Positions 15,571-38,356 of a DNA stretch of 64,000 bases are shown here, one piece after another. Every line of letters begins with the position of its first letter. The first letter of the stretch is position 1. Under the pieces are notes generated by a model. The model was not told where the DNA came from. It made no database searches and was given only the letters and a program-made list of their open reading frames with translations. This DNA comes from an uncultured bacterium (GTDB lineage Bacteria > Hinthialibacterota > Hinthialibacteria > OLB16), in NCBI GenBank assembly GCA_964481775.1, contig CAYZUX010000008.1, forward strand, positions 169 to 64,168, given 5' to 3'. Position numbers and translations under genes: made by a program.

Positions 15571-18315
15571 ATGATCGATTATACGGATCTGGTGAAGGAG
15601 TCTTCCATGTTAAGGCAAACCCGCCTTTCCTCCATTTTTTTATTGAACAGACCAGGAATCATCCAGGGTCTTATCCTGTTGCTGCAGTTGAGTCTCTGTC
15701 CTGAAGTTCTGGCCGCTGATGACAATGGGGCATATCCCGGTACTACGGTACTGGCCCACAATCGGGACTACACCTTTGGCTTTTACCCATACGGCTGGCG
15801 TGGAACCGATCCACGCGGAAACCGTATCTTTGCGGTCCAAACCAATGCGTATGGCCTTTGGGTGAATGCTTCGAAAGCTCGTGTTGAGCGGCTTGGAGCT
15901 TTTCCCCAGGGGGTGAGCGAGGAAGAGGCAGTAGGTCAGGGGAATGAAGTCCTTCTTGGATTACCGGAGACCAGTTTGACCTTTTCCGTCTCGATCCAGG
16001 GCGAAACCTATGAAGCGGTCTCGGCAGTCCCCGCTCTGGACCGGCTTCTGATCAAACGTACCGGAAGGTATGTCCAGCATTTCGAACTCCTCGATGTGGC
16101 CCTGAAAAAAGAGGATGGAACGACACTTCCGGATGTCAACGCCAAGCTGGTTTTCTACTGCTGGCCGGATCGTTTTTCGGTCACGCTTTCTCTGACTCCT
16201 GTTCAGGTTGCTCTCAATGAGGTCAGGTTCTCCATGTCCCTGTATGCGGCAGAGAGCTTTCTCAGGCTCTGGCTTTGGAAAGATGGAGGCTTTGTGGAGG
16301 GGGTGCCTAGAGGAAGCTCCTCTTATGGGCTGGTGGCTTTGACCGAACCGGGCGATTCGGGAATCGCGCTGATTAACCCAACTCCGCAGAGCCAGAAACT
16401 CCGGGTTGTGTCATCCCAGCGGGTTGTCTGTGAGAGCCTCTCAGCAGCGGCTGTGTCCAAAGCCAGCGAGATCACCTTTTCAATAGTGGCAACTGCTTCC
16501 AAACAGGAACTGTCTCATTGGGTCGACAGAGAAATCGAGGCAATGCTGTCTCCCTTGGCAGCCGCGGATATCACCGCCTCGGCTACTGGGCCTGTCACTG
16601 GTATCCAACCGGTCCATTATGATCCCGTGACCGGAGAGTACAGGATTCTGACACCCTCCAAGAACAACCACTACAGCCAGGTGGAGCGGATCCTCCTGCA
16701 CCTGGCCAATCCTTCCGCAATCCCGCGCACCTTACGGCTTCATTTCTACAAAGATTCGACTCTCGGGGGCGGTTTCTCCATTACAGGCATGTCACCCCTC
16801 TTGAGGGACCTGAACGGTCTCCCCATCGCCCTGCCAGTTCAGATTTCGAAGAACTGGCATGTGAATCCTTCCTGGTTCAGTGGCTTAACCATGCTTTCGC
16901 TGGACCCGGACCAGCAGGTGGATCTGGAGTATGATCTGACCTATGCCTACTGGGGGAAGCGTGATATGGAGAATCCCCTTCCGGCGGTTTCTCATGCGCA
17001 CTTGTGCCTGGAGGGATATGGTGGAAACCAGCAGTGGGATCAGCTGGCGATTGGCTCTTTCGGGGAGAGCATCTGCTATGACCCGGATGTGAATTTGAAG
17101 CGGGCCATGGGCGATGACATCCGTCCCTTGATGGTACGTAGCATGGATGCCAAAAGCCCCCAGTGGACTTGGACCAACAACGTGGGCGGACTCGATTTCC
17201 TGGTCTATTACAAAAACAACCAGAAACAATTCCTTTCTCGCCAGAAAACCCTCTTCAGCCGTTATTGCCCAGTTCTGACTGATGTCACCTATGCCGGGGA
17301 AACTCCCGATGGAGCAGTCCAGTCAAGGATCAGGACTCAGACCTGGCGCACCGATGACTATGTGCGAGGACTTTATACGATTCGGTATGATGTCGTGGCT
17401 CCAGTCGACAACCTGACAAGATTAGCGTTCTTCCAGATGGGAGCGGATGGGTACAACACCAATCCGTTCGACAAGTTCGCGCGTGGAAGCCTGGCTGGTC
17501 TGGAGGAAACCTGGGATGCCTCCACCACACGGGGAGGTTGGACCTATCACCGGCGAGGGATCGAGCTCACCGGAGAGCAGCCCTGGTTTGCCATGTATGA
17601 GTATGGAGTACCGGAAAAGAATGCAGGGGCCTGGGCTAACCGTGGCGTCATCATCCGCAGCTGGAAAGCGCGGCTGGGTGGAGTGGAGTGTCCCCACCCG
17701 TTTTATTCCGTTTATGGTACGGTGGATGGGAATGTCCCCAGCGCATTGGTGGAGCTCTCGCCACCTGAGGGGTTGACCCGTCTGACAGCAGGTGATTTCG
17801 TGGAGGCAGTGGTGGAGATGATGGTTGTTCCCCAATTCGCCGCGGACTACTATGGTCCCAATCAAAATCTGTCTGCTTTGTTGAATGCACACCCGGACAG
17901 CTGGGAACCGGTTCTCCGGGAGGCTCAAAGCAACAACCTGATTGTCACTGCATTTGGGGGAAGTGTGGAACGGACTCTGCCGGTTGAAATCCGGACGGAG
18001 AATGGTATACAAGTGCGATTTTCCATCACGGGGGGAGTGGGCTTCGTTCCAGTCACTATACGGGGAGTGAGGCGGCAGGGGCCTTTCCAACTGAAGCACA
18101 AATTGAAGGATTATCGATGGGAGAGGATCGACCAGTCTTCCTCTCTTGGGAACGATTGGTGGCAGACCGGTCCTGGAAACAAAGCGGGTGAAGCAGACAT
18201 AACCTTCACCGTACAACTGGAAAATCCAGACGGCCAAATCAGCACCCATGAATTCGAGTGGTCCTTGTGGGATGACCCCACGGAAGACAGGAAGCGAAAA
18301 CCAGCATCAGGATAA
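15571..18315 (+). CDS. Large secreted protein of unknown function (possibly carbohydrate-active)
   Basis: 914-codon ORF with a signal-peptide-like N-terminus (start may be ATG 15607). Trp/Tyr/Asp-rich core (HAHLCLEGYGGNQQWDQLAIGSFGESICYDPD); no family motif recognised. Confidence 0.75.
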   Translation: MIDYTDLVKESSMLRQTRLSSIFLLNRPGIIQGLILLLQLSLCPEVLAADDNGAYPGTTVLAHNRDYTFGFYPYGWRGTDPRGNRIFAVQTNAYGLWVNASKARVERLGAFPQGVSEEEAVGQGNEVLLGLPETSLTFSVSIQGETYEAVSAVPALDRLLIKRTGRYVQHFELLDVALKKEDGTTLPDVNAKLVFYCWPDRFSVTLSLTPVQVALNEVRFSMSLYAAESFLRLWLWKDGGFVEGVPRGSSSYGLVALTEPGDSGIALINPTPQSQKLRVVSSQRVVCESLSAAAVSKASEITFSIVATASKQELSHWVDREIEAMLSPLAAADITASATGPVTGIQPVHYDPVTGEYRILTPSKNNHYSQVERILLHLANPSAIPRTLRLHFYKDSTLGGGFSITGMSPLLRDLNGLPIALPVQISKNWHVNPSWFSGLTMLSLDPDQQVDLEYDLTYAYWGKRDMENPLPAVSHAHLCLEGYGGNQQWDQLAIGSFGESICYDPDVNLKRAMGDDIRPLMVRSMDAKSPQWTWTNNVGGLDFLVYYKNNQKQFLSRQKTLFSRYCPVLTDVTYAGETPDGAVQSRIRTQTWRTDDYVRGLYTIRYDVVAPVDNLTRLAFFQMGADGYNTNPFDKFARGSLAGLEETWDASTTRGGWTYHRRGIELTGEQPWFAMYEYGVPEKNAGAWANRGVIIRSWKARLGGVECPHPFYSVYGTVDGNVPSALVELSPPEGLTRLTAGDFVEAVVEMMVVPQFAADYYGPNQNLSALLNAHPDSWEPVLREAQSNNLIVTAFGGSVERTLPVEIRTENGIQVRFSITGGVGFVPVTIRGVRRQGPFQLKHKLKDYRWERIDQSSSLGNDWWQTGPGNKAGEADITFTVQLENPDGQISTHEFEWSLWDDPTEDRKRKPASG

Positions 18316-18345
18316 CAAAAGCCTTCAGGGAGAAGGAAATTACAA

Positions 18346-18834
18346 ATGAAAGAAGCACTCAAGATCGAGATTGAGGATCGGAATCCGCTCACGATTGTCC
18401 ATCTGTTCGGGGCATTGGCGGCGATGGAGGTTTACAGGGTCAAGGCGATGACGGATGCCTGGCTCCGTGAAGGCAGGAAATACATCGCCCTTGACATGGT
18501 CTATGTCAGTTTTCTGGATAGTGCCGGTATCGGACTTCTCCTCCAACTGCGCAATAACTGTCAGTCCGCGGGAGGGGGAATGGTTCTGGTCCGTTCGGCG
18601 GAGAACCAGGTGATGCGGACCCTTGAAACCGCCTCGATTGAGAAACTGATCCCTTTTTTCAATGATCTGCAGAATGCACTCAATTATATTCAAACTACAT
18701 TCGGTATTTGTTTGACACCGACCCCAGCTTCGTCTCCCTCGGGGGATCTCGAGGAGACCCTCAGGAGCCTGGCTGTACGTCTTGGGCGAGTGGAAGAACG
18801 ACTCGGACGAATTGAGGCCAAACTGGAGGTGTAG
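18346..18834 (+). CDS. STAS-domain protein (anti-sigma antagonist type) with C-terminal coiled coil
   Basis: VSFLDSAGIGLL retains the phospho-Ser motif; C-terminal heptads LRSLAVRLGRVEERLGRIEAKL. Confidence 0.85.
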   Translation: MKEALKIEIEDRNPLTIVHLFGALAAMEVYRVKAMTDAWLREGRKYIALDMVYVSFLDSAGIGLLLQLRNNCQSAGGGMVLVRSAENQVMRTLETASIEKLIPFFNDLQNALNYIQTTFGICLTPTPASSPSGDLEETLRSLAVRLGRVEERLGRIEAKLEV

Positions 18835-20712: not shown

Positions 20713-21201
20713 ATGTATGAACAGTATGCCCATGTCTTGATTTTTGCTTTCGTCGCGGCCGCGGTGGTCATCGCTCCTATCGTCCTGTTCGCGCTGATCC
20801 GTCCCGTCAAACCCCATACAGAAAAACTGACTCCATACGAATGCGGGGAACGTCCGGTCGGAGAGCCCTGGATTCAGTTCAACATCCGGTACTACGTGGT
20901 CTGTATCATCTTCCTTGTGTTCGAGGTGGAAGTTCTCTTCATGCTGCCCTGGGCGGTGGTGTTCAATGCCTTCCGGGATGGCGGCCCGGCTTTGGAGAAA
21001 GCGGCTGGTGGCTTGTCCAATCTACAAGGCGCCAGTGGGGGACTGGCCTTCATCGAGATGCTGGTTTTTCTCGTGATTCTGGCCGTTGGCTTGGCCTATG
21101 TATGGGTAAAAGGGCATCTGGAGTGGGTCAAGGAAGTGACACAACCGACTGAGATGAACAAAGAAAATTCCCTCCCAGGGACTGGGACCTACGGGCAATA
21201 G
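20713..21201 (+). CDS. nuoA: NADH-quinone oxidoreductase subunit A
   Basis: [30 protein letters not shown] and [10 protein letters not shown]; extra Gly-rich loop before TM3. Confidence 0.95.
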
Positions 21202-21217
21202 AGATTCAGGAGTAATC

Positions 21218-21715
21218 ATGGGCCTTTTGGAGCACCAGTTCGAGGACAGCGCGATTTTCGCCACGGCGGATGAGGTCATCAGTTGGGTACGCGAAAGCTC
21301 CATCTGGCCGATGACCTTCGGATTGGCCTGTTGTGCGATTGAGATGATGTCGACCGCCGCCTGCAAGTTTGATCTGGACCGTTTCGGTGCGGGGGTTTTT
21401 CGCGCTTCGCCACGCCAGTCGGACCTCATGATTGTCTCGGGAACTGTGACCAAGAAGATGGCCCCACGGCTCAAGCTGTTGTATGACCAGATGCCCGATC
21501 CCAAGTGGGTAATCGCTATGGGGAGTTGCGCGATCGGTGGAGGACCTTATTACATCCATGGTTATCATGTGGTCAAAGGTGTGGATCTGATTGTTCCGGT
21601 GGATGTGTATGTTCCCGGTTGTCCGCCTCGTCCGGAAACCCTGATTGCGGGGATCCTGGAGCTGCAGAAGAAAATTGAAGAGACGCCGACCCTGCGCCGT
21701 CCCAGCGCGGCTTAA
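21218..21715 (+). CDS. nuoB: NADH-quinone oxidoreductase subunit B
   Basis: [24 protein letters not shown] and PGCPPRPE (N2 cluster ligands); no NuoC fusion. Confidence 0.97.
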
Positions 21716-21750
21716 GGTGGTGCTTCTCAACACGATATAAGGAGCGAAGG

Positions 21751-22878
21751 TTGCCGACCGGTTCACTGAAAAGCGAACGCATGTTGATCTCGATGGGGCC
21801 GCAGCACCCTTCGACCCATGGCGTTCTACGTCTCCTTCTCCAGACCGATGGCGAGGTGATCGAAACAGCCGAGCCCTATCTCGGGTATCTGCACCGTTGC
21901 GCCGAAAAAATCGGCGAAAACCTTACCTACAATCAATACACCCCCTACACCGACCGGATGGATTACCTCGCCTCGATGAACGAGAACTGGGCGTGGTGCC
22001 GCGCGGTGGAAACCCTTTGCGGAGTGGGAGTCCCCGACCGTGCCGAGTACATCAGGGTCATTGTCTGCGAGCTCAACCGGATCGCCAGTCACCTGCTGGC
22101 TCTCGGTACCCATGGTCTCGACACTGGCGCCTTCACCCCCTTCCTCCTGGCTTTTCGTGAACGTGAGCATGTGGTTCTGATTCTCGAGGCCATCTGCGGG
22201 GCGCGTCTCACCTACAACTATGTGCGCATCGGAGGGGTGCTGTGGGACCTTCTCCCGGAACACATCGAGATGACCCTCAAATTCCTCGATCAGTTCGATG
22301 CCCGTCTGGATGAGATCAATGATCTGCTCACCCACAACCACATTTTTGTCCGGCGGACCGCCAATGTGGGAATCGTGACTCCTGAGCAGGCGATCGAGTA
22401 TGGCTTTACCGGGCCAAACCTGCGTGCCTCGGGCATCGATTGGGATTTGAGGCGGGATGAGCCTTTCTCAGTATACCCTGAGTTGAGTTTCGAGATCCCG
22501 GTTGGGAGAGGCATCAAGGGAACTATCGGAGATTCCTGGGACCGCTATTGGGTCCGTTTCGAGGAGATGCGCCAGTGTTCACGTATGATCCGGCAAGCCA
22601 TCGAGCAGCTTCCCGCAGGACCCTGCTGCGGCCCTGTTCCCAAGGTGCTCAAGGCTCCCAAGGGACGTGAAGTGTATGTCCGTACCGAGAACCCGCGCGG
22701 CGAGCTGGCCTTCTATATCGTCAGCGAGGGCAAGAACATCCCCTACCGGGTTAAGGTCCGTGCCCCGGCCTTTGTCAGCCTGTGTATTATAGAAGATCTG
22801 TGGACCAACATCTTTGTCGCCGATATGGTGGCCGCGGTGGGAAGTCTCGACATTGTCATGGGGCAGGTGGACCGCTAG
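21751..22878 (+). CDS. nuoD: NADH-quinone oxidoreductase subunit D (not fused to NuoC)
   Basis: MGPQHPSTHGVLRL, GYLHR, DRMDYL, ENPRGE and C-terminal LDIVMGQVDR. No Ni-binding CxxC pairs. SD AAGGAG before the TTG start. Confidence 0.96.
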   Translation: MPTGSLKSERMLISMGPQHPSTHGVLRLLLQTDGEVIETAEPYLGYLHRCAEKIGENLTYNQYTPYTDRMDYLASMNENWAWCRAVETLCGVGVPDRAEYIRVIVCELNRIASHLLALGTHGLDTGAFTPFLLAFREREHVVLILEAICGARLTYNYVRIGGVLWDLLPEHIEMTLKFLDQFDARLDEINDLLTHNHIFVRRTANVGIVTPEQAIEYGFTGPNLRASGIDWDLRRDEPFSVYPELSFEIPVGRGIKGTIGDSWDRYWVRFEEMRQCSRMIRQAIEQLPAGPCCGPVPKVLKAPKGREVYVRTENPRGELAFYIVSEGKNIPYRVKVRAPAFVSLCIIEDLWTNIFVADMVAAVGSLDIVMGQVDR

Positions 22879-22881
22879 ATC

Positions 22882-24114
22882 ATGTACTCCAAGCTCTACG
22901 ATATCCTCTACTCCAGCCTCGAGTTCCTTTTGAATATCCCCTTCTGGGTATTCGGATCGCAGGTACCGGACTGGCTGGTTTTCATCCATGTCAGCCTGGT
23001 GCTGGGCGGAATCTGTGTCATGGGCTTTGTCTCGGTGCTGGCCATGTTTTCGGTTTGGGCGGAGAGAAAAGTTTCGGCTTTCATGCAGGCCCGTCTCGGA
23101 CCGATGGAGGTGGGGGCCTATCATGGCTGGCTGCAAACTGTGGCCGATGCCATGAAACTCCTGCTCAAGGAAGACATCATCCCCGCTTCCTCGGACAAGG
23201 CGCTTTTCCTCATTGCGCCGATGCTGGTGTTTACTGGGACATTGATCTCTTACGTGGTCATCCCCTTCGGTCCTTTTCTCAAAGTTGCGGATATGGATCT
23301 GGGGGTGTTCTACATCCTGGCCACCTCGGCCCTGGTGGTGGTCGGGATCATTTCGGCTGGGTGGGCCTCCTTCAACAAGTGGTCCATCTATGGCTCCATG
23401 CGTGCCGCCTCACAGTATATCAGTTATGAGATCCCGACTGCGTTGCACCTGCTGCCGGCAATCCTGATGGCTGGATCGCTGAATATGTCGGTCATCGCGG
23501 ATAGCCAGACGTATTACCTGGGCGATCCGAATCAACCTTTCTACAAAGACTTCAGCTTCCTGAACTGGGCGGTATGGCCCTGGATCAATCCCTTTGCCAC
23601 TGCCTCCTTCATCATGTACTACATTGCCAGCCTGGCGGAGACACAGAGGACACCATTCGATCTGGCCGAATCCGAGTCGGAGCTCGTGGCGGGCAGTCAC
23701 ACCGAGTTTTCGGGCATCCGCTGGTCATTCTTCTTCCTGGCGGAATATGCCGATATGTTCGTGGTTTCAGCCCTGGGGACCGTGGTGTTCCTCGGCGGCT
23801 GGCATGGAATTCCGTTGATTCCACCATTACCGGAGTTCATGCTCAAAACTTTGTTCCTGATGTTCGTGGCCATCTGGCTGCGCTGGACTTTGCCACGCTT
23901 GCGTGTTGACCAGCTGACCTATGTCTGTTGGAAGGTGCTGCTCCCCTTCGGTTTCGTCACCGTGTTGGGGACTGCTTTCTGGCAGCTTTATTTCACACGC
24001 CGTCCAGCGGGTTATGTGGCGGGGATCGTGTTGACCGCACTGGTGGTTTTTGTGATCCACCGGATCTGGAAAAGCGAGCCGGTGCCCAAACGGCAGCCGG
24101 TGTTAGCGGTGTAG
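22882..24114 (+). CDS. nuoH: NADH-quinone oxidoreductase subunit H, extended termini
   Basis: AERKVSAFMQARLGP, ADAMKLLLKED, ETQRTPFDLAESESELVAG and RWTLPRLRVDQL. Confidence 0.96.
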   Translation: MYSKLYDILYSSLEFLLNIPFWVFGSQVPDWLVFIHVSLVLGGICVMGFVSVLAMFSVWAERKVSAFMQARLGPMEVGAYHGWLQTVADAMKLLLKEDIIPASSDKALFLIAPMLVFTGTLISYVVIPFGPFLKVADMDLGVFYILATSALVVVGIISAGWASFNKWSIYGSMRAASQYISYEIPTALHLLPAILMAGSLNMSVIADSQTYYLGDPNQPFYKDFSFLNWAVWPWINPFATASFIMYYIASLAETQRTPFDLAESESELVAGSHTEFSGIRWSFFFLAEYADMFVVSALGTVVFLGGWHGIPLIPPLPEFMLKTLFLMFVAIWLRWTLPRLRVDQLTYVCWKVLLPFGFVTVLGTAFWQLYFTRRPAGYVAGIVLTALVVFVIHRIWKSEPVPKRQPVLAV

Positions 24115-24184
24115 GGCGGGGCTTGCCCCGCCGTGGAAGTCAGGGTTCCTATGGACCAAATCGGTGGGGCAAGCCCCACCCTAC
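24111..24184. repeat. REPIN, REP family A doublet between nuoH and nuoI
   Basis: GTAGGGCGGGGCTTGCCCCGCC (24111-24132) and inverted GGTGGGGCAAGCCCCACCCTAC (24163-24184). Confidence 0.88.
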
Positions 24185-24233
24185 AAGGGTCAGGTTCGGT
24201 TGGTTAAACCGCACCCCACAAGAGATAAGGAAT

Positions 24234-24770
24234 ATGGAATCAGTCCGTCGGTATTTCAAAGAAGTCGTGGATGGGTTCGTCACCGTGCTGGTCGGCATGG
24301 TGGTGACCGGGCGCGAGTTCGTGCAGCACAAGGAGCGGGTCATCACCACCCAATACCCCAAGGAGGCGACAGTCCTGCCGCCGCGTTTCCGGGGGATGCT
24401 CTTCAATGATGTTCAGAAGTGCATCGCGTGCCTGCTGTGCGCCAAGGACTGCCCTGTGGACTGCATTGTGGTGACAGGTGTTGGCAAGGGAAAAGCGCGC
24501 CGCCCCGATGTCTTTACAATCGATTTTAACAAATGTATGTGGTGCAATCTGTGCGTGGAGGTCTGCCCGGTCGAGAGCCTCTACATGACCCATGAATTCG
24601 AAACCACCTTCCGGGACCGGAGGAACATGCTGGTCGATTTCATGAAGTATGATCAGGCTCCGCCGCGTCCCATCGGGGATGAGATTGCACCTGAGAAGCA
24701 ATGGACCGGCCCGAAGGCCAAGGTGGTGGAGCCACCAGTTACGGAGGAGCCACCGAAAACGGAGGCGTAG
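24234..24770 (+). CDS. nuoI: NADH-quinone oxidoreductase subunit I
   Basis: Two ferredoxin motifs, CIACLLCAKDCP and CMWCNLCVEVCP. ATG 24234 follows SD AAGGA. Confidence 0.96.
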   Translation: MESVRRYFKEVVDGFVTVLVGMVVTGREFVQHKERVITTQYPKEATVLPPRFRGMLFNDVQKCIACLLCAKDCPVDCIVVTGVGKGKARRPDVFTIDFNKCMWCNLCVEVCPVESLYMTHEFETTFRDRRNMLVDFMKYDQAPPRPIGDEIAPEKQWTGPKAKVVEPPVTEEPPKTEA

Positions 24771-24839
24771 GGTGGGGCTTGCCCCACCATGTTTTTACGA
24801 CGGTTGTTGATTACCCCGGTGGGGCAAGCCCCACCCTAA
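24767..24839. repeat. REPIN, REP family A doublet between nuoI and nuoJ
   Basis: GTAGGGTGGGGCTTGCCCCACC (24767-24788) and inverted GGTGGGGCAAGCCCCACCCTAA (24818-24839). Confidence 0.88.
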
Positions 24840-24844
24840 AAGAT

Positions 24845-25357
24845 ATGTTTGACTTCATCTTCTATCTCTTTTCCTTGGTGTGCGTGGGCTCGGCGTTGTT
24901 CGTGGCCTTCACTCCCAATGTGGTCCATGCGGCCCTCTCGCTGGGAGCCACCTTCGCGAGCATGGCGGGCCTTTATCTCCTGCTGGGAGCGGACTTCATC
25001 GCGGTCACCCAGGTGGCCATCTATGTCGGCGCGATCCTGGTCCTCATGCTCTTTGGCATCATGTACACCCACAATGTGGCGCGGATCTCCGGGGAGGAGG
25101 TCACCATGCAGGTCGGCGCGGGATTGGTGGTGGCGTTTCTGACCCTCTTCACCCTGGTGGCTGCGGTGGTTTCGACCCAGTGGCCGGTCAAGGAAGTGGC
25201 CAGTCCGCAGCCCACCGTGGAACGCATCGGCGTCCTGTTTCTGACCGACTACCTGATTCCCTTCGAGGTGGCCTCGGTGCTGCTTCTGGTGGCTCTCATC
25301 GGCGCGGTTGTCATCGCCCACTCAGTCCAGACAGCCAGGAGCGAGGATGAATCATGA
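24845..25357 (+). CDS. nuoJ: NADH-quinone oxidoreductase subunit J
   Basis: NVVHAALSL, QVAIYVGAILVLMLFGIM and YLIPFEVASVLLLVALIGAV. Confidence 0.95.
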   Translation: MFDFIFYLFSLVCVGSALFVAFTPNVVHAALSLGATFASMAGLYLLLGADFIAVTQVAIYVGAILVLMLFGIMYTHNVARISGEEVTMQVGAGLVVAFLTLFTLVAAVVSTQWPVKEVASPQPTVERIGVLFLTDYLIPFEVASVLLLVALIGAVVIAHSVQTARSEDES

Positions 25358-25659
25358 TCGGGCTGACCCACTTTCTCATTGTCAGCGCGCTGTTGTTCTC
25401 CATTGGCCTGTTCATTGTCATCACACGCCGTCATGGGATCATGATGTTGATGGGACTGGAGATCATCCTGAATGCGGCCAACCTGAATCTGGTGGCCTTC
25501 AGCCGTTATGTCGAGGGTGGGGTGCGCGGCCAGGCTTTCGCGGTCTTCGTGATCATCCTCGCGGCGGCAGAGGCGGCCATCGCGCTGGCGATCATCCTCT
25601 CGATCTACTCGAATCTTTCGAAGATCAATCTCGATGAACTCAAGAGTATGAAGGAATAG
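25354..25659 (+). CDS. nuoK: NADH-quinone oxidoreductase subunit K
   Basis: MLMGLEIILNAANLNLVAFS and AAAEAAIALAI (both conserved Glu present); ATGA overlap with nuoJ. Confidence 0.96.
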   Translation: MIGLTHFLIVSALLFSIGLFIVITRRHGIMMLMGLEIILNAANLNLVAFSRYVEGGVRGQAFAVFVIILAAAEAAIALAIILSIYSNLSKINLDELKSMKE

Positions 25660-25665
25660 GCCGCC

Positions 25666-27828
25666 ATGGTGATCCGTCCCCTGCTCATTGTCCTGTTCCC
25701 CCTGCTCTCTTTCTGGGTGATCATGCTTTTCGGAAGGATGGGGAAGCTGCGCGGCATCTGTGACAAGATCGCGGTCGGCGCGATCGCCTTGTCTTTCCTG
25801 CTCTCCTACACCATCTACCGCCAGGCTATCTCGGCTTACAATGGCGGCGAGGAATTTCTGGTTCTCAACCAGACTCCTTATGCCTTTATGACCTTCACCA
25901 ATCCCGAAACAGGGGCTCCCCTAGTCTGGAAGCTCGGTTTCTGGATCGACAGCCTGACCGCGATGATGCTGATGGTAGTCACCATTGTCAGTCTCCTGGT
26001 CCACATCTTTTCATTGGGCTATATGAAGGGTGAGGAGAATTATGGACGATTTTTCGGATTTCTCAGTCTTTTCTCCTTCTCGATGCTGTTGCTGGTTCTG
26101 ACTGACAACCTCTTCATCCTGTATGTCTGCTGGGAGCTGGTCGGCATCTCCTCGTTCCTGTTGATCGGGTTCTATGTGAACCGGGCTTCGGCGGCGGCCG
26201 CCGCCAAGAAGGCCTTTCTTACCAACCGGGTGGGCGATCTGGGCTTCGCGATCGGCCTCTTCATCATTTACTCCAAGTTCCACACTTTCTCGTATATCGA
26301 GGTCTTCGAACGGATCAAGGCCGGCGAAATGAGTGGAACCCTGCTCACCATTACCAGCCTGTTCCTGTTCTGCGGCGCGGTGGGCAAGTCGGCGCAGTTC
26401 CCACTTCACATTTGGCTCCCCGATGCCATGGAAGGCCCGACTCCGGTCAGCGCCCTGATCCATGCCGCGACCATGGTGGCCGCCGGGGTCTACATGGTGG
26501 CGCGTCTGTTCCCCATCTTCACTCCCGATTCACTGCTGGTGGTGGCCTACATCGGGACTTTCACCGCACTCATGGCCGCGACCATTGCCATCACTCAGTT
26601 CGACATCAAACGGGTGCTGGCCTATTCCACCCTGAGTCAGCTTGGCTACATGATGGCGGGCCTGGGTGTGACCGCTTATACCGCATCCATGTTCCACCTG
26701 ACCACCCATGCCTTTTTCAAGGCGTTGCTCTTTCTCTGCTCCGGTTCGGTCATTCTTGCGCTGCACCATGAGCAGGATATGCGCAAGATGGGCGGCCTGT
26801 GGAGGAAGACACCCATCACCTGTCTGACCATGCTGATAGGCTGCCTGGCGATCTCGGGAATCCCCTTCCTCTCAGGATTTTATTCGAAGGACATGATCCT
26901 TGCCGGCGCGCTCCACTTTGGCATGGAACACCCGCAACACATGCTGCTGCCCATCGCCCTCTTCGCCGCCGCCGGGATGACCGCCTTTTACATGTTCCGT
27001 CTCTTCTTCATGACCTTCACCGGAACTCCCAGAGATTCCCATGCCTTCAGCCATGCCCATGAAAGCCCGCGAGTGGTTACCATTCCCCTGATATTGCTCG
27101 CTTTGCTTTCGATCGGTTCGGGGTGGGAGCATGTGGGATTGGGCGGGTTCTTCAAGGAACGGGTCATTCCATTCGGGAGCCCTCCGCCAGCTGTCAGTCA
27201 TCAGGCTTCCGTTGATGCGGGCGGGCAGGCCGCCTTCGCCCAGGATACCCATGAAGCGCCCGCCGCTCCGGTGGCTCATGGAACCGCTGCTCCACCCGAA
27301 GGGCACTCAACAGGTGGTCATGCCACCCATGACATCGCGCACACCGCGCATGTCCTGGCCATGACCTTGAGCGTAATTGGCTCGGTAATCGCCATTTTCT
27401 TTTCCGCCTTGTGCTACTGGGAACGCTTCCGGGTGATCGATCCGGCACGTGGTGCGCGGATGTTTGGCAAGCTCTATGACCTTTCCTACAACAAGTACTA
27501 TGTCGATGAGTTCTATGACCGCACCCTCTACCGGGCTGTGGACTGGTTGCGAGGATCTCTGGCTCGTTTCGACCTGGGAATCATCGATGGGATTGTGAAT
27601 GGATCAGCTCATTACACCGCCAGGTTCTCCAAAGGAACTGGACGTTTTGACCTGGGAATCATTGATGGCATTGTGAACTGGTTTGCCGATTTCTGTCAGG
27701 ACATCGGTCAACGGGTTCGCAGGGTGGAGACCGGTATCATCCAAAATTACATTCTCAGGGCCGGTGGTGCGGTGGGAGTGATCGTGATTGTCTGGATTGT
27801 AGTGAAGAGTCTTGTGGGAGGGGCATAA
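25666..27828 (+). CDS. nuoL: NADH-quinone oxidoreductase subunit L with His-rich loop and 26-aa duplicated transverse-helix segment
   Basis: CWELVG, GKSAQFPLHIWLPDAMEGPTPVSALIHAATMV, FHLTTHAFFKALLFL, FYSKD and NKYYVDEFY motifs. Confidence 0.97.
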   Translation: MVIRPLLIVLFPLLSFWVIMLFGRMGKLRGICDKIAVGAIALSFLLSYTIYRQAISAYNGGEEFLVLNQTPYAFMTFTNPETGAPLVWKLGFWIDSLTAMMLMVVTIVSLLVHIFSLGYMKGEENYGRFFGFLSLFSFSMLLLVLTDNLFILYVCWELVGISSFLLIGFYVNRASAAAAAKKAFLTNRVGDLGFAIGLFIIYSKFHTFSYIEVFERIKAGEMSGTLLTITSLFLFCGAVGKSAQFPLHIWLPDAMEGPTPVSALIHAATMVAAGVYMVARLFPIFTPDSLLVVAYIGTFTALMAATIAITQFDIKRVLAYSTLSQLGYMMAGLGVTAYTASMFHLTTHAFFKALLFLCSGSVILALHHEQDMRKMGGLWRKTPITCLTMLIGCLAISGIPFLSGFYSKDMILAGALHFGMEHPQHMLLPIALFAAAGMTAFYMFRLFFMTFTGTPRDSHAFSHAHESPRVVTIPLILLALLSIGSGWEHVGLGGFFKERVIPFGSPPPAVSHQASVDAGGQAAFAQDTHEAPAAPVAHGTAAPPEGHSTGGHATHDIAHTAHVLAMTLSVIGSVIAIFFSALCYWERFRVIDPARGARMFGKLYDLSYNKYYVDEFYDRTLYRAVDWLRGSLARFDLGIIDGIVNGSAHYTARFSKGTGRFDLGIIDGIVNWFADFCQDIGQRVRRVETGIIQNYILRAGGAVGVIVIVWIVVKSLVGGA
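27565..27678 (+). repeat. In-frame direct repeat in nuoL, period 78 bp (RFDLGIIDGIVN x2)
   Basis: 27565-27600 vs 27643-27678: 32/36 nt identical, all four differences synonymous. Confidence 0.95.
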
Positions 27829-27833
27829 ACCCG

Positions 27834-29393
27834 ATGTTCAGTCTGACTTTCCTGACCTTCTTCCCCATTATCGGCGCGGCGATACTCTGCGTCCTGCGCG
27901 ATGATGAGACCATCCGCCGTGTGGCTCTGGTGATCACGCTGATCACCTTCGTGCCTGGGTTGGCGATGATGTTAGACTTCAACGAAAGCTACAGCGAAGC
28001 TCAGGTGGCTGCCGCCGCCATGCCCCAAGCCGCCGGAAAGATGGTTTTCGCTTATGAGAAAAAAAACCCCTGGATCGGTTCCTTCAATATCAACTACCAC
28101 ATGGGCGCTGATGGGCTGTCCATGCCCTTCATATTCCTCACCGCTTTTCTCTGTCCCTTGTGTGTACTGGCCTCTTGGGGGATCAAGGAAAAGGTGAAGG
28201 GCTACATGGCGCTCTTCCTGCTGTTGGAGGGGGCCATGATCGGAGTTTTCGCGGCCCTGGATCTCTTCCTCTTTTTTGTGTTCTGGGAGCTGATGCTGGT
28301 GCCGATGTATTTCCTGATCGGCATCTGGGGCGGGCCACGGCGGGTGTATGCCGCCATCAAGTTCGTGCTTTACACCCTTTTTGGCTCGGTGTTCCTCTTC
28401 ATCGCCATGCTGGTCCTGTTTGCCAAGACCGGTTCCTTCAGTCTGGTTGACCTGCCTGCCATGATGAGCGGGATAGGGATGTCCTGGGGGATCAAGGTGG
28501 CCCTCTTCATCGGATTGTATGTCGCCTTCGCGATCAAGATCCCGGCCTTCCCCTTCCACACCTGGTTGCCGGATGCCCATGTGGAGGCTCCCACAGCGAT
28601 CAGTGTGATCCTGGCGGGGATCCTGTTGAAGATGGGAACTTACGGTCTTTTCAGGATCAGCTTTCCCATCTTCCCGGAGGCGACCGCCTGGTTCTGTACT
28701 CCTCTGGCCATCTTCGGTCTGATCAACATCGTGTATGGTGCGCTCTGCGCCATGGCCCAGTCTGACCTCAAGAAGCTGGTTGCCTACTCCAGCATCAGCC
28801 ACATGGGGTATGTCATGCTGGGGATGGCGGTTTACAAGGAGGAGGCCCTGCAAGGAGCGGTCTTCCAGATGTTCAACCATGGAACCATCACCTCCATGCT
28901 GTTCCTTCTGGTCGGTGTGGTTTATGACCGTGCCCACCACAGGGAGATCGATGGCTTCGGCGGGCTGGTCAAACCGATGCCGATCTATGGCGGCTACACC
29001 GCTTTCGCTTTCTTTGCGGCCTTGGGACTGCCGGGCTTGAGCGGATTTATTTCCGAGGCGTTGATCTTCTTCGGGTCTTTCCAGGAGCAACGGTTGATCG
29101 CCTGTCTGGCCACCTCGGGGATTTTGCTTGGTGCGGCTTACATGTTGTGGACCTACCAGCGTGTCTTCATGGGGCCGCTTAATGAGAAATACGAAACCAT
29201 CCCCGAGATCAACCTGCGTGAGATCTGCACCCTCGCCCCGCTGGCCTTTGTCATTCTCCTGTTGGGAATCTTCCCTTCCATCTTTCTCAATTCGATTGAT
29301 CCGACCATGGATGCGATGTTGGCCCTGTTGCAGAAAGGGAGAGTGGCCTACGAGGCGATGAGCGCTCAGGTGGCGATGATAGGGATGCCCTGA
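27834..29393 (+). CDS. nuoM: NADH-quinone oxidoreductase subunit M (single copy)
   Basis: FFVFWELMLVP, AFAIKIPAFPFHTWLPDAHVEAP, LLKMG, AYSSISHMG and GFISE. Confidence 0.97.
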   Translation: MFSLTFLTFFPIIGAAILCVLRDDETIRRVALVITLITFVPGLAMMLDFNESYSEAQVAAAAMPQAAGKMVFAYEKKNPWIGSFNINYHMGADGLSMPFIFLTAFLCPLCVLASWGIKEKVKGYMALFLLLEGAMIGVFAALDLFLFFVFWELMLVPMYFLIGIWGGPRRVYAAIKFVLYTLFGSVFLFIAMLVLFAKTGSFSLVDLPAMMSGIGMSWGIKVALFIGLYVAFAIKIPAFPFHTWLPDAHVEAPTAISVILAGILLKMGTYGLFRISFPIFPEATAWFCTPLAIFGLINIVYGALCAMAQSDLKKLVAYSSISHMGYVMLGMAVYKEEALQGAVFQMFNHGTITSMLFLLVGVVYDRAHHREIDGFGGLVKPMPIYGGYTAFAFFAALGLPGLSGFISEALIFFGSFQEQRLIACLATSGILLGAAYMLWTYQRVFMGPLNEKYETIPEINLREICTLAPLAFVILLLGIFPSIFLNSIDPTMDAMLALLQKGRVAYEAMSAQVAMIGMP

Positions 29394-29421
29394 TGGACTG
29401 AAGTAAGAACGGTAACGAAAC

Positions 29422-30918
29422 ATGCTCACATGGCTCAGTAACATAGAATCCTTACGGTACTTTATTCCGGAACTGTGGCTCACTTTATGGGTTTTGATCC
29501 TGCTCATTCAACCTTTGATTCCCAGGTTCTCCAGCCCCAGGCTGTCCTCTCAGCTGGCGCTGGTAGCGTTGATCGGGGCATGCCTGCTGGTCTTTAACCT
29601 GCCTGTAATTGAAGGTTCTCAAGGACTCTTCTTTGGCATGCTGGCGGGGGATGGCCTGGCGAAATTCTTCAAGATCCTGTTTGTCCTCACCACGCTGGTC
29701 ACGGTCCTCATGACCGCCGGGGGTCAGGAAGTCGACGACTCTCGCAAGCCGGAGTTCTATTCCATCCTGTTGGGCATCCTGTTGGGCATGTTCCTGGCGG
29801 CTTCCTCAATGGACCTGTTGATGCTGTACCTTGCCATTGAGCTGCTCTCCCTGGGGTCCTATGTTCTGGCTGGTTTTGCCCAAAATGAGAATCGTTCCGA
29901 TGAAGCCGCCATGAAGTATCTCCTTTATGGAGGCCTTTCCACGGGAGCGATGCTGTACGGGATGACTTACCTGTATGGGATGTCTGGCACCACCAGTCTG
30001 ACCGGTATTCGTGATGCCATCGCCCAGGGCACACATAGTCCCGTGGCGTTTTTTGTAGCCTTTCTGTTTGTGTTCGTGGGGATTGGCTACAAGGTTTCGG
30101 CGGTTCCCTTCCACTTCTGGGCGCCGGATGTCTATGAAGGCTCCCCCACGGTACTTGTGGCATTCCTCTCTGTGGCTTCGAAGGCCGCCGGTTTCGCCGC
30201 TTTCATCCGTTTGTTCTTCACCTCGATCCTTTCGCTTGGCAACAATGGGATCTGGACACCGATTGTGGAACTCGATTGGAGGGTCATCCTCTCGTTGATC
30301 GCGATAGTCACCATGACCTTTGGCAACCTGGGGGCTTTCCGTCAGGAGAACATCAAGCGTCTTTTCGCCTATTCAGGAATTGCCCATGCCGGTTATGTTC
30401 TGGTGGGTGCTTTGGCTTTGACCACCGCAGGTGTACAAAGTGTTCTGTTTTACCTCCTCACATACCTCTTCACCAATCTCGCGGCCTTCGCTGTGATTGT
30501 TTACCTTTCGGACCGTCATGGGATGGAGGGGGTTGAGGATTACCGTGATCTGGGAAGACGTTCTCCCTTATTGGCGCTGATGTTGACCCTCTCGATCTTC
30601 TCACTGATTGGTGTACCTCCCATGGCGGGTTTCCTGGGCAAGTGGTATCTGTTTGCGGCGGCGGCCAAAACTTTGGATCCCTGGTGTATCGCGGCGGTGG
30701 TGGCTGGCCTGTTGAACTCCACTTTGTCGGTTTACTACTACATGCGAATCGTCAAAGCCATGTACCTGGATCGTTTGGAGAATCCCCCGGTGCTCACTCC
30801 AGACCATACCCTGACCACTCTTGCAACCGTTCTATCGATTCCCGTGGTCTTCCTGATCTTCACAGTGGGACCGGTCTATGACTGGACCGGGAAACTCACC
30901 CAGATGCTCCTGGGATAG
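29422..30918 (+). CDS. nuoN: NADH-quinone oxidoreductase subunit N
   Basis: AIELLSL, EAAMKY, YKVSAVPFHFWAPDVYEGSP, IKRLFAYSGIAHAGY and GFLGKW. Confidence 0.96.
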   Translation: MLTWLSNIESLRYFIPELWLTLWVLILLIQPLIPRFSSPRLSSQLALVALIGACLLVFNLPVIEGSQGLFFGMLAGDGLAKFFKILFVLTTLVTVLMTAGGQEVDDSRKPEFYSILLGILLGMFLAASSMDLLMLYLAIELLSLGSYVLAGFAQNENRSDEAAMKYLLYGGLSTGAMLYGMTYLYGMSGTTSLTGIRDAIAQGTHSPVAFFVAFLFVFVGIGYKVSAVPFHFWAPDVYEGSPTVLVAFLSVASKAAGFAAFIRLFFTSILSLGNNGIWTPIVELDWRVILSLIAIVTMTFGNLGAFRQENIKRLFAYSGIAHAGYVLVGALALTTAGVQSVLFYLLTYLFTNLAAFAVIVYLSDRHGMEGVEDYRDLGRRSPLLALMLTLSIFSLIGVPPMAGFLGKWYLFAAAAKTLDPWCIAAVVAGLLNSTLSVYYYMRIVKAMYLDRLENPPVLTPDHTLTTLATVLSIPVVFLIFTVGPVYDWTGKLTQMLLG

Positions 30919-36034: not shown

Positions 36035-38356
36035 ATGACCCCTACTCCCTTCGAAGTTGAGAAGATGGTTAAAAAGAATACTGTCATTCTCAGACTGAGC
36101 GGGATGCTGAACACCGAAACCCGTGCTGATCTGGAACCTTATGTCGAGGAACTCGATTCATCACAGAATCTTCAGGAAGTCATCCTCAACCTGGATCGCC
36201 TGACCCATATCGATTCACGGGGACTTTCCACCCTTCTCTCCATGCACCGCCGGTTTACAGAGCGGGATGTCGGGTTCCGCCTGGTGAATGTCAACGATTA
36301 TGTCCTGCGGCTCTTCCAGGTCTCCAATCTGGTCAACCTGTTTGAGATCGGTCCCCCACCCCAAGACCATGCTTCCCTTGTCCACGACCGCCGTGAAGCG
36401 CTGTGGCAATCCCATGCTTTTACGACGCAACTGCTGGCGGCACTGGGAGAGGCGGTTCTTGGTGTGGATGCGGATGGAAGGGTGTTGTTTGTCAATCCAG
36501 CCGCGGAACGCCTTCTGGGTTGGGAGGAAGCAGACCTGTTGGGCCGGGTTCTCTCGGATGCCTTGAATCCGCGTGACCAGTCTGGACGTCCGGTACTGAT
36601 GGCCTTGTCTCCCCACCCGGCCTTGGAAGAAACACAAAACCCGGTTGTCCGTGTGGAGGTGACACTCCATAAACGATCTGGAGAAACCACCGAGGTGGAA
36701 TGGGTTGCAACCACGATTTTCCAGGCGGGTCAACGGATTGGCCGCGTGATTGGAATCCGTGATCTCAGTCAACGGCGCAGGGCGCAGGATGAGGTAAAAC
36801 GTCTCGCCACGGCGGTGGATCAAGCTGCCGAAATGATCGTGGTTACCGATCCCGATGGGGTAGTCCAGTATGTGAATCCGGCTTTTGAGAGAGTGACTGG
36901 TTACTCCCGGGAAGAAGCGGTTGGCAAGCGGACGAACATCCTCAGTTCAGGGGTTCACGACCAGGCGTTTTTCGAGGATCTCTGGCGTACCATTCGAGGG
37001 GGACGTGTTTGGACAGGACGGTTCATGAACCGCCGCAAGGATGGCAGGCTCTATGAAGAGGAAGCCACCATCTCGCCGGTCCATGATGCCGCGGGCGCCA
37101 TCATCAATTTTGTGGCGGTGAAACGGGACATTACCCAGGAGGTTCTTCTTGAGCAGCAACTGCGTGAATCGCAGAAATTCGAGGCGATCGCTCAGCTTGC
37201 AGGCGGTATCGCTCATGATTTCAACAACCTGCTCACCTCGGTGATTGGAAACATCCAACTGGCCAAGATCAAGAAAAAAGGAGATGTCACCGCTTACCTT
37301 GAGAAAGCTGAACAGGCCTGTCTGAGAGGAGCTTCGCTTGTTCAGCAGTTGTTGCTCTATAGCCGTAAGTCCACTTCCACCAAAGAGCGAGTCAGCCTCA
37401 ATTCGATTGTTCGTGAGGTCCTCGCGCTTGCCCGTGAGACTATTGACCGGCGGATCGAGTTTAAGGTGGAATTACACCAACAGCTCCCCCCGGTTCGTGC
37501 TGACTCGGGGCAAATGCACCAGGTCCTGTTGAACCTGGTGCTGAATGCACGCGATGCAGTTGAAGACCGTCGTGTTGCGGAATCGTCCACTGAGAAAAAG
37601 CCGACAACGCCTTTTGAGCAGAAGATCACAGTCAAGACGGATATTGTGTCTCCTGATTCTCAAAAGATTCCCAAAGATGCCCTTCCACCCGCGGAGGATT
37701 ATGTAGTTCTGACTGTGTCTGATACCGGAACTGGTATGGACAGTAAAACTCGTCAGCATCTTTTTGAGCCATTTTTTACGACCAAAGAGGTGGGGAGGGG
37801 AACCGGACTGGGATTGGCAACCGCATATGGAATCGTGAGAAACCATGGAGGATGGGTGGAGGTCCAAAGCAGTCCAGGGGTCGGTTCCACATTCAATGTA
37901 TACCTGCCTGCTGACATGGCCTCCAAAGTTGATCAGTCACAGCAGGTGGTTTTGGAACCGGTTCCAGGGGGGAATGAGACGATTCTTGTGGTAGATGATG
38001 AGATCTCGATCTGTGAGGTGGCCAAGGATATCCTGGAAGGCCACGGATATCAGGTTCTGATTGCCTTGGATGGCGTTGAGGGGTTAGACATCTATTCCCG
38101 TGAGATGGCCCATGTGGATTTGGTTATTCTGGATCTCTCGATGCCGAAGTTGTCTGGAAGGGAAGTTCTGGAACGTCTTAAGGCCTTGAATCCTTCTGTC
38201 CGTGTGATCATTTCGAGCGGTTACCTGGGCGATGATATCCACTCGACCGCCAGCGATTGTGTGTTTGTCCAGAAACCCTACAGGACCGATGACCTCCTCA
38301 GGGGGGTACGTGAAGCTTTGGATCGATTACCACTGAAGTCATTACGTTCTGCTTAG
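36035..38356 (+). CDS. Hybrid histidine kinase STAS-PAS-PAS-HisKA-HATPase-REC
   Basis: STAS (THIDSRGL), two PAS (VNPAAE; VNPAFERVTGYS..RRKDG), H-box GIAHDFNNLL, N-box NLVLNARDA, G boxes FEPFFTTK/GTGLGL, REC ILDLSMP. Confidence 0.93.
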   Translation: MTPTPFEVEKMVKKNTVILRLSGMLNTETRADLEPYVEELDSSQNLQEVILNLDRLTHIDSRGLSTLLSMHRRFTERDVGFRLVNVNDYVLRLFQVSNLVNLFEIGPPPQDHASLVHDRREALWQSHAFTTQLLAALGEAVLGVDADGRVLFVNPAAERLLGWEEADLLGRVLSDALNPRDQSGRPVLMALSPHPALEETQNPVVRVEVTLHKRSGETTEVEWVATTIFQAGQRIGRVIGIRDLSQRRRAQDEVKRLATAVDQAAEMIVVTDPDGVVQYVNPAFERVTGYSREEAVGKRTNILSSGVHDQAFFEDLWRTIRGGRVWTGRFMNRRKDGRLYEEEATISPVHDAAGAIINFVAVKRDITQEVLLEQQLRESQKFEAIAQLAGGIAHDFNNLLTSVIGNIQLAKIKKKGDVTAYLEKAEQACLRGASLVQQLLLYSRKSTSTKERVSLNSIVREVLALARETIDRRIEFKVELHQQLPPVRADSGQMHQVLLNLVLNARDAVEDRRVAESSTEKKPTTPFEQKITVKTDIVSPDSQKIPKDALPPAEDYVVLTVSDTGTGMDSKTRQHLFEPFFTTKEVGRGTGLGLATAYGIVRNHGGWVEVQSSPGVGSTFNVYLPADMASKVDQSQQVVLEPVPGGNETILVVDDEISICEVAKDILEGHGYQVLIALDGVEGLDIYSREMAHVDLVILDLSMPKLSGREVLERLKALNPSVRVIISSGYLGDDIHSTASDCVFVQKPYRTDDLLRGVREALDRLPLKSLRSA

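Follow-up and report, generated by a model that had tools for sequence, protein, structure and literature searches.

Can an enzyme of the complex I superfamily work without NuoC, its 30-kDa subunit? The question is raised by a nuo operon in a 64,000-nucleotide stretch of DNA (hereafter the window; assembly GCA_964481775.1, contig CAYZUX010000008.1, positions 169 to 64,168) from an uncultured bacterium of the Hinthialibacterota lineage OLB16. NuoC (also Nqo5, NDUFS3, NdhJ, FpoC or MbhK) is regarded as a conserved core subunit across the superfamily and as acting early and centrally in the assembly of the quinone-reducing module (Q-module), and disease-causing mutations of the human homologue are known (PMC3144371, PMC4932448). 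The complex I-type enzymes that lack NuoEFG, known as the 11-subunit NUO11 type from Chlorobi, Bacillus cereus and many other bacteria, have NuoC in their minimal core (Moparthi and Hagerhall 2011, PMC3144371), as a first-pass annotation of the window, made from its letters, had also stated. Between positions 20713 and 30918 of the + strand, the window carries ten consecutive open reading frames in the order nuoA-B-D-H-I-J-K-L-M-N. We were able to show that each of these genes is intact, that they are closely spaced and that purifying selection of the ordinary kind acts on them. They form a genuine, lineage-wide nuo operon that descends from the NuoEFG-less 11-subunit type (A-B-C-D-H-I-J-K-L-M-N). 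The reading we prefer, tentatively and at slightly less than an even chance, is that the enzyme assembles without an orthologous NuoC, that is, with a naturally NuoC-free Q-module. A search of the literature found no description of a nuoC-less nuo operon.

The nuo operon and its nuoB-nuoD junction

The first-pass annotation had described a ten-gene cassette lacking both nuoC and nuoEFG, and the gene content and order were borne out by Pfam assignment (Table 1). No match to PF00329 (Complex1_30kDa, NuoC) was obtained among the ten operon proteins, and neither a profile built from the NuoC proteins of five relatives nor tblastn with these proteins and E. coli NuoC detected a NuoC in the six-frame translation of the 64-kb window. 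Likewise, tblastn searches of the window with E. coli NuoE, NuoF and NuoG were empty, and nuoH follows nuoD after a gap of 3 nt. The membrane arm is complete, with NuoH, NuoA, NuoJ, NuoK and three antiporter-like subunits each recognized by a Pfam match.

The junction between nuoB and nuoD had been described as a distance of 35 nt with a clean Shine-Dalgarno sequence, free of any remnant or B/C or C/D fusion. Indeed, an AAGGAG Shine-Dalgarno sequence stands six bases ahead of the TTG start codon of nuoD, and the spacer of 35 nt is too short for a nuoC remnant; in relatives the same position is taken by a gene of ~500 nt with a NuoC signature. NuoB (165 aa) and NuoD (375 aa) have the normal lengths of single-domain proteins, and therefore neither of them contains a fused NuoC. 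A hidden NuoC domain was rejected as well, since Pfam, the NuoC hidden Markov model (HMM) and the six-frame tblastn search gave no match. The N-terminus of NuoD starts 15 residues ahead of the GPQHP motif and aligns with unfused NuoD proteins.

A mis-join or collapse in the assembly, by which nuoC would have been taken out of the contig, was examined; the first-pass annotation had named a mis-join at the junction as a refutation. The sole hint in this direction is the contig of L001, the closest representative in GTDB, which breaks off within nuoD. Logan unitigs of two biofilm sequencing runs (X1, X2) span positions 21481-21797 with zero differences, and in a bioreactor run (X3) that contains a strain of ~96% identity a unitig spans 21488-22038 without a gap. 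Within 21716-21750, the unitigs of the three runs showed no alternative joints or loose ends. Moreover, an identical NuoB is encoded on two metagenome contigs of the Joint Genome Institute (JGI), on both of which nuoA precedes it and nuoD follows after 35 nt. In the clade described below, nuoB stands directly before nuoD on nine contigs other than that of the window (JGI, NCBI and ENA; different samples; NuoD identity 78-100%). The unitigs of three runs and these nine contigs thus exclude a mis-join at this junction, and an assembly artefact can practically be dismissed as the cause of the missing gene.

The functional residues that the annotation had called intact were confirmed throughout. 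In NuoB the ligands of cluster N2 (C38, C39, C104 and C135, including the tandem CC) are present in both sequence and translation. The quinone-site residues H23, Y72 and D124 of NuoD correspond to H38, Y87 and D139 of Thermus thermophilus Nqo4; H23 and D124 are invariant in 19/19 sequences of the clade, and Y72 is located in a DYL motif that is kept throughout an alignment of 13 sequences. Both cluster motifs of NuoI are present (CIACLLCAKDCP and CMWCNLCVEVCP). At 28 reference positions of E. coli NuoL, NuoM, NuoN, NuoK, NuoH and NuoA, 27 residues are identical, the remaining one being the conservative change of NuoA D79 to E (NuoA E71 and E73 stand at E. coli D79 and E81). The key residues of the antiporter-like subunits are NuoL E157, K241, H266, H344, H348, K352, K408 and D409 (E. 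coli E144, K229, H254, H334, H338, K342, K399 and D400), NuoM E152, K235, K266 and E408 (E. coli E144, K234, K265 and E407) and NuoN E140, K224, K254 and K407 (E. coli E133, K217, K247 and K395). In NuoH, the E-channel loop has kept its acidic residues. A further comparison took the 117 NuoD positions with a conservation of at least 93% in 192 sequences from outside the clade; the 19 NuoD proteins of the clade have no fixed change at these positions, comparable lineages having 0-5. With all catalytic and coupling residues kept, the operon looks functional as far as its sequence can tell, in agreement with the first-pass annotation.

Some peculiarities of NuoD were observed alongside. The clade has fixed the substitutions E10R, N14S, N343S and I362A at strongly conserved positions, and its C-terminal GE(V/I)DR motif (residue 372) reads GQVDR; residues 10, 14, 343, 362 and 372 group in the first and last strands of the protein. 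The whole NuoD family (loci L001-L172), NuoC-bearing relatives included, is without ~22-28 aa that are found in canonical 49-kDa subunits. The gap lies at residues ~299-303 of the window NuoD and corresponds approximately to residues 315-336 of T. thermophilus Nqo4, the 'SMExxIxHFK' helix, where alignments with Pfam and PDB entries split into two parts. In this missing segment the family resembles MbhL.

Distribution of the operon and polarity of the loss

Homologues of the window NuoD form a tight group of 11 database clusters with 78-96% identity, after which the identity drops to 61%. By the names given in the sources, this clade belongs to Candidatus Hinthialibacterota: the source of one member calls it Candidatus Hinthialibacteria, and the bin of the nearest representative in GTDB is labelled OLB16, which is the former name of the phylum (PMC9324843). 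All recovered clade contigs have the arrangement A-B-D-H-I-J-K-L-M(-N). These are nine relatives with readable DNA (L081-L087, L093 and L094) and one JGI contig that was read from gene calls only; at least two clade contigs were contributed by a metagenome scan. A nuoC gene between nuoB and nuoD was found in none of the ten clade loci; of the 96 loci that do not belong to the clade, 79 have one there. The ten loci come from at least eight samples, and their flanking genes differ, so several species are represented.

The B-D spacers of the clade measure 9-62 nt by gene calls and 22-69 nt by tblastn estimate, with one longer spacer in L084 that measures 215 nt, or 219 nt in the tally of spacers. 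It is an insertion of a G-rich palindromic repeat (L084 positions 6400-6590) without similarity to NuoC, related to but larger than the repeat-like palindromes of the window listed in Table 1.

Two lineages, represented by L003 and by L088/L089, are the sisters of the clade in a neighbour-joining (NJ), midpoint-rooted tree of NuoD. Their operons are arranged A-B-C-D-H-I-J-K-L-M-N and encode a NuoC with the classical 30-kDa signature. For each of the ten subunits (10/10), L003 is nearer to the clade than the other outgroups. Since the sister lineages keep nuoC, the common ancestor had the gene, and it was cleanly deleted from the operon in the ancestor of the clade, as a lineage-specific loss.

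A possible Q-module without NuoC and its alternatives

How might such an enzyme work? Electrons would enter at the two [4Fe-4S] clusters of NuoI and pass on to cluster N2 in NuoB, which would reduce quinone, probably menaquinone, in the pocket formed by NuoD, NuoB and NuoH; quinone reduction would then drive proton pumping via NuoH/A/J/K and NuoL, NuoM and NuoN. NuoEFG are missing from this operon as from all the sister operons. The enzyme would therefore lack an NADH site, and a separately encoded donor would have to feed it. The window contains no electron-input module, and none is conserved beside the operon across the clade. The published description of the phylum lists hydrogenases of groups 3c and 3d along with a transhydrogenase, no Rnf or Nqr, and names only 'complex I' (PMC9324843). 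The first-pass annotation had suggested ferredoxin or flavodoxin as the donor, which is speculative. Our best guess is reduced ferredoxin, with cyanobacterial NDH-1 and the Fpo-like enzymes as analogues. If this scheme applies, the operon may encode the first natural relative of complex I that works without a 30-kDa/NuoC subunit, its Q-module consisting of NuoB, NuoD and NuoI only and the whole acting as a quinone-reducing proton pump with three antiporter-like subunits; we hold this description to be a possible one, with chances not quite even. A precedent is provided by 17 Planctomycetota loci with the same NuoD family, in which nuoB and nuoD, or nuoB, nuoD and nuoI, stand together without nuoC.

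The first-pass annotation had left the choice between a nuoC acting in trans and a NuoC-independent variant. Both possibilities stand, and the choice has been narrowed, as nuoC is found in none of the ten clade loci and a vertically inherited copy was not found among the matches listed. Nor was a NuoC detected within 10 kb of the operon in any of the nine relatives with readable DNA. A phmmer search with the NuoC of a sister lineage against 5.8 billion proteins, of which the best 120-150 matches were listed, was expected to show a vertically inherited copy at ~45-50% identity within the first few dozen matches, given that the other sister lineage appears at 48-60%. The top matches listed belong to the two sister lineages, joined only by P0142, which is encoded directly after a nuoB whose product is only 55% identical to the window NuoB (a B-C context). 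When 1.84 billion cluster representatives were searched exhaustively by HMMER with a sister-lineage profile, the tree made from the result singled out the NuoC lineage P0244/P0391, which sits in a normal A-B-C-D-H... operon; the context look-up of nearby NuoC representatives covered all but P0275. No orphan NuoC was found at the expected phylogenetic position among the matches listed, although NuoD of the clade is represented in the same database by 11 clusters. A comparison of the X1 and X2 contigs with sister nuoC at 80% likeness, which is an insensitive one, yielded only short foreign matches at the wrong depths. As no orphan NuoC was found near the sister NuoCs among the matches listed, a vertically inherited nuoC that was relocated and evolved at a normal rate seems unlikely. 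A foreign or fast-evolving NuoC would escape recognition among thousands of NuoC proteins.

Several observations weigh against a NuoC-free Q-module. All complex I-type enzymes described so far keep a NuoC homologue, which is assigned to the 11-subunit minimal core and regarded as central to the stability and assembly of the Q-module (PMC3144371, PMC4932448). The absence of NuoC reported here covers the window and the 10-kb flanks, not whole genomes, and scattered nuo genes are frequent in related Planctomycetota. No RNA run holding the operon was found. Relative-rate tests and three-lineage counts gave no acceleration of NuoD, NuoB or NuoI on the stem of the clade, their rates matching those of the sister lineages, and alignments with relatives revealed no compensating cytoplasmic domain in the clade, the additions being membrane or periplasmic parts of NuoA and NuoH. 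Moreover, the residues of T. thermophilus Nqo4 that are reported to touch Nqo5 are L104, V244, E341, V342, E352, Y366, K369, R371 and R409 (PMC4932448), and their equivalents in the window NuoD (L89, I229, E307, V308, E318, Y332, K335, R337 and R375) are all nine retained in the clade, identical or conservatively replaced (V/I229). Retained contacts without a burst of substitutions are what would be expected if a NuoC-like partner still binds. The weight of this retention is limited by the shallowness of the clade (at least 74% identity); 4/9 contact positions are strictly invariant, which is not above the average site, and several of them are also conserved in paralogues. A clade-specific C90 and an inserted R306 adjoin contact residues, within what chance allows.

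The most serious alternative is accordingly a split operon, in which a nuoC encoded elsewhere, in a second nuo cluster, by horizontal gain or as a diverged relocated copy, completes an ordinary 11-subunit relative of complex I. The kept contact residues and the even rates of NuoD, NuoB and NuoI fit this explanation, as does the universal presence of NuoC in characterised enzymes (PMC3144371, PMC4932448). In related Planctomycetota, scattered nuo genes, orphan nuoD copies and C-D pairs apart from A-B are common, one metagenome-assembled genome (MAG) has two nuoD loci (L047 and L058), and a NuoC of another lineage type would go unrecognised among the best 120-150 matches. Against it stand the lack of NuoC in the 64 kb and in the flanks of nine relatives, and the finding that the candidates near the sister NuoCs, among those followed up, all lie in conventional B-C-D operons. 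Two events would also be required to take one gene out of the interior of a ten-gene operon that is in all else perfectly conserved and yet preserve a copy elsewhere. We regard a split operon as a real possibility, on the doubtful side. The NuoC-facing residues of NuoD are conserved while no NuoC orthologue was found among the matches listed, and an unrelated protein encoded elsewhere could also have taken the place of NuoC on NuoD and NuoI. Ech-type hydrogenases have a small subunit, EchD, that is not known to have a complex I counterpart. Such a non-orthologous replacement is improbable, as no candidate protein was found and the operon has no neighbour conserved across the clade, the flanks differing in the window, L082, L083, L085 and L086.

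Has the operon rather decayed after losing nuoC, so that no working complex is made? The lost subunit is regarded as essential for assembly (PMC4932448), and the lack of an RNA run with the operon sequence would fit such a relic. The ten reading frames are nevertheless intact in clade members down to 78% NuoD identity, every functional residue that was checked is retained, the 117 conserved NuoD sites are free of changes and the rates equal those of the sister lineages. Residue retention and the absence of a rate burst together make a decaying relic appear very unlikely.

Outside the Q-module the clade has additions of its own. NuoA has an insertion of ~22 aa in the loop between transmembrane helices TM2 and TM3, which is probably periplasmic, and NuoH is extended by ~25 aa at the N-terminus, has an insertion in a loop and possesses one more hydrophobic helix, with a basic tail, at the C-terminus. 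A link between these additions and the loss of NuoC is not obvious. As substitutes for NuoC they were rejected, because parts that are membrane-embedded or periplasmic cannot replace a cytoplasmic domain of ~160 aa. The tail of NuoI is common to the NuoC-containing sisters.

Should a NuoC-free Q-module be the true state, NuoC would not be part of the irreducible core of complex I, and a long-lived lineage with an intact NuoC-less operon would constitute a natural experiment on the role of this subunit. Structural and synthetic studies would also gain a minimal Q-module of smaller size, and the question of the electron source, which concerns many NuoEFG-less complexes, would become sharper. If nuoC were found elsewhere in the genomes of the clade, the finding would be an unusual split operon, mainly of value for annotation, since automatic pathway calls would score the complex I of the phylum as incomplete. 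A nuoC-less variant of NuoEFG-less complex I would be new, conditional on a genome-wide check.

Related systems and further features of the window

The closest comparison is with NUO11 and the sister operons (L003, L088, L089 and L173), which share the content and order of A, B, D and H-N with the window operon and have no NuoE/F/G between D and H. The NuoD of L003 is of the same subtype, with 60% identity to that of the window, and is likewise missing an internal segment that canonical 49-kDa subunits have. In NUO11 and the sister operons NuoC lies between B and D, and it is absent in all ten clade loci. Every defining feature of NUO11 was thus found here (NuoB, NuoD, NuoI, the membrane arm and no NuoEFG in the operon) except for NuoC.

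The NUO10 operons of Nautiliales encode a fused NuoCD (Degli Esposti 2015, PMC4758237). They resemble the window operon in having ten nuo genes and no NADH-oxidizing N-module. In NUO10 and in E. coli NuoCD, the NuoC domain makes up the N-terminal half of a protein of ~590-600 aa (a length taken from the E. coli and PDB C/D fusions rather than from the Nautiliales protein). In the window, a fusion of this kind was ruled out by the length of NuoD (375 aa), its unfused N-terminus and the lack of a PF00329 match.

Group 4 [NiFe] hydrogenases (Ech, Mbh and Hyc) were considered and rejected, since the NiFe motifs are replaced in the window NuoD by GPQHPSTHG and DIVMGQVDR. The best PDB matches of NuoD are 49-kDa subunits of complex I (E ~1e-99), compared with 5e-56 for the hydrogenases, a value that rests on one large subunit, MbhL of MBH; MbhL and HycE match the window NuoD far more weakly than complex I subunits do. 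Ech-type enzymes (group 4e), with their NuoB/NuoD/NuoI/NuoH-like core, are usually described without a separate NuoC-type subunit, so a related module can work without one. A NiFe site, only one antiporter-like subunit and the reduction of protons by ferredoxin characterize Ech, whereas the window operon encodes a NuoD without NiFe cysteines and has NuoA, NuoJ, NuoK and three antiporter-like subunits. Another system without NuoEFG is the NDH-1 of cyanobacteria and plastids, which is fed by ferredoxin. Its NdhH matches the window NuoD at E ~1e-93. NDH-1, however, keeps the NuoC homologue NdhJ and has gained the oxygenic-specific subunits NdhL-S; NdhJ/NuoC was not found in the window, NdhL-S not being part of that search. 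Hinthialibacterota are a non-phototrophic candidate phylum (PMC9324843).

The Planctomycetota mini-clusters with nuoB-nuoD(-nuoI) and without nuoC (L011, L019, L023, L024, the first copy of L039, L046, L096, L099, L100, L103, L105, L107, L108, L110, L111, L112 and L118) have a NuoD of the same family at 54-58% identity, with nuoD straight after nuoB. They differ from the window operon in that nuoA, H, J, K, L, M and N are not nearby, and they form a separate, paralogous clade. Each may possibly encode a soluble or separately anchored B-D-I module. A gene for a NifU_N scaffold protein lies directly before the mini-cluster in L019, and in L039 a conventional A-B-C-D locus is present as well, at a distance of 6 kb. 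In a Phycisphaerae clade, nuoD is an orphan, and nuoB, nuoC and nuoH are all absent up to a distance of 10 kb (L007, L008, L009, L012, L013, L014, L017, L018, L025, L026, L036, L038, L040, L052, L059 and L062). In the MAG with two nuoD loci, SRP323688_co1_276, one copy belongs to an operon (L047) and the other is an orphan (L058). In the superphylum, nuo genes are often split into I-A-B, C-D and H-J-K-L-M-N units.

Table 1. Genes of the nuo operon and other features of the window (window coordinates)
Feature	Position	Strand	Description
nuoA	20713..21201	+	162 aa; PF00507 (Oxidored_q4), E 6e-32
nuoB	21218..21715	+	165 aa; PF01058 (Oxidored_q6); stop codon 21713-21715
nuoB-nuoD spacer	21716..21750	+	35 nt; AAGGAG Shine-Dalgarno 21739-21744; no nuoC remnant
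nuoD	21751..22878	+	375 aa; TTG start; PF00346 (Complex1_49kDa), E 1.5e-89; no NiFe ligands
nuoH	22882..24114	+	410 aa; PF00146, E 1e-105
nuoI	24234..24770	+	178 aa; Fer4 family matches; two CxxCxxCxxxCP motifs
nuoJ	24845..25357	+	170 aa; PF00499
nuoK	25354..25659	+	101 aa; PF00420; E36 and E73 (checked against E. coli)
nuoL	25666..27828	+	720 aa; antiporter-like subunit; PF00361 and PF00662
nuoM	27834..29393	+	519 aa; antiporter-like subunit; PF00361
nuoN	29422..30918	+	498 aa; antiporter-like subunit; PF00361
REP-like palindromes	24115-24180		nuoH-nuoI spacer
REP-like palindromes	24771-24835		nuoI-nuoJ spacer
REP-like palindrome	15329-15346		
STAS gene	18346-18834		small, stand-alone
STAS gene	36035-38356		fused to PAS, histidine kinase and receiver domain

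The start of nuoI was placed at 24234, following the gene calls of relatives and the alignment, and that of nuoJ was moved from 24701 to 24845, where the N-terminus MFDFIFY agrees with five relatives. A scan for promoters and terminators gave no signal above chance. The spacers on both sides of nuoI are occupied by G-rich palindromes, arranged as inverted pairs, that resemble repetitive extragenic palindromic (REP) elements, GGTGGGGC(TT/AA)GCCCCACC; with one more in the upstream part of the window, five matches were found where 0.01 would be expected.

The remaining window is ordinary chromosome, with genes for aconitase, ddl, truB, infB, nusA, glnB-glnA, glycoside hydrolases and signalling proteins. 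The smaller of two STAS-domain genes lies two genes upstream of nuoA and is kept in the closest relatives (L084 and one JGI contig); a regulatory tie between the STAS genes and the nuo operon is possible. In L082 (GCA_045863435.1, BTVQ01000003.1), a Fic-domain gene (17631-18638) follows nuoM at the place expected for nuoN and the contig ends right after it, which may reflect either an insertion or an assembly break.

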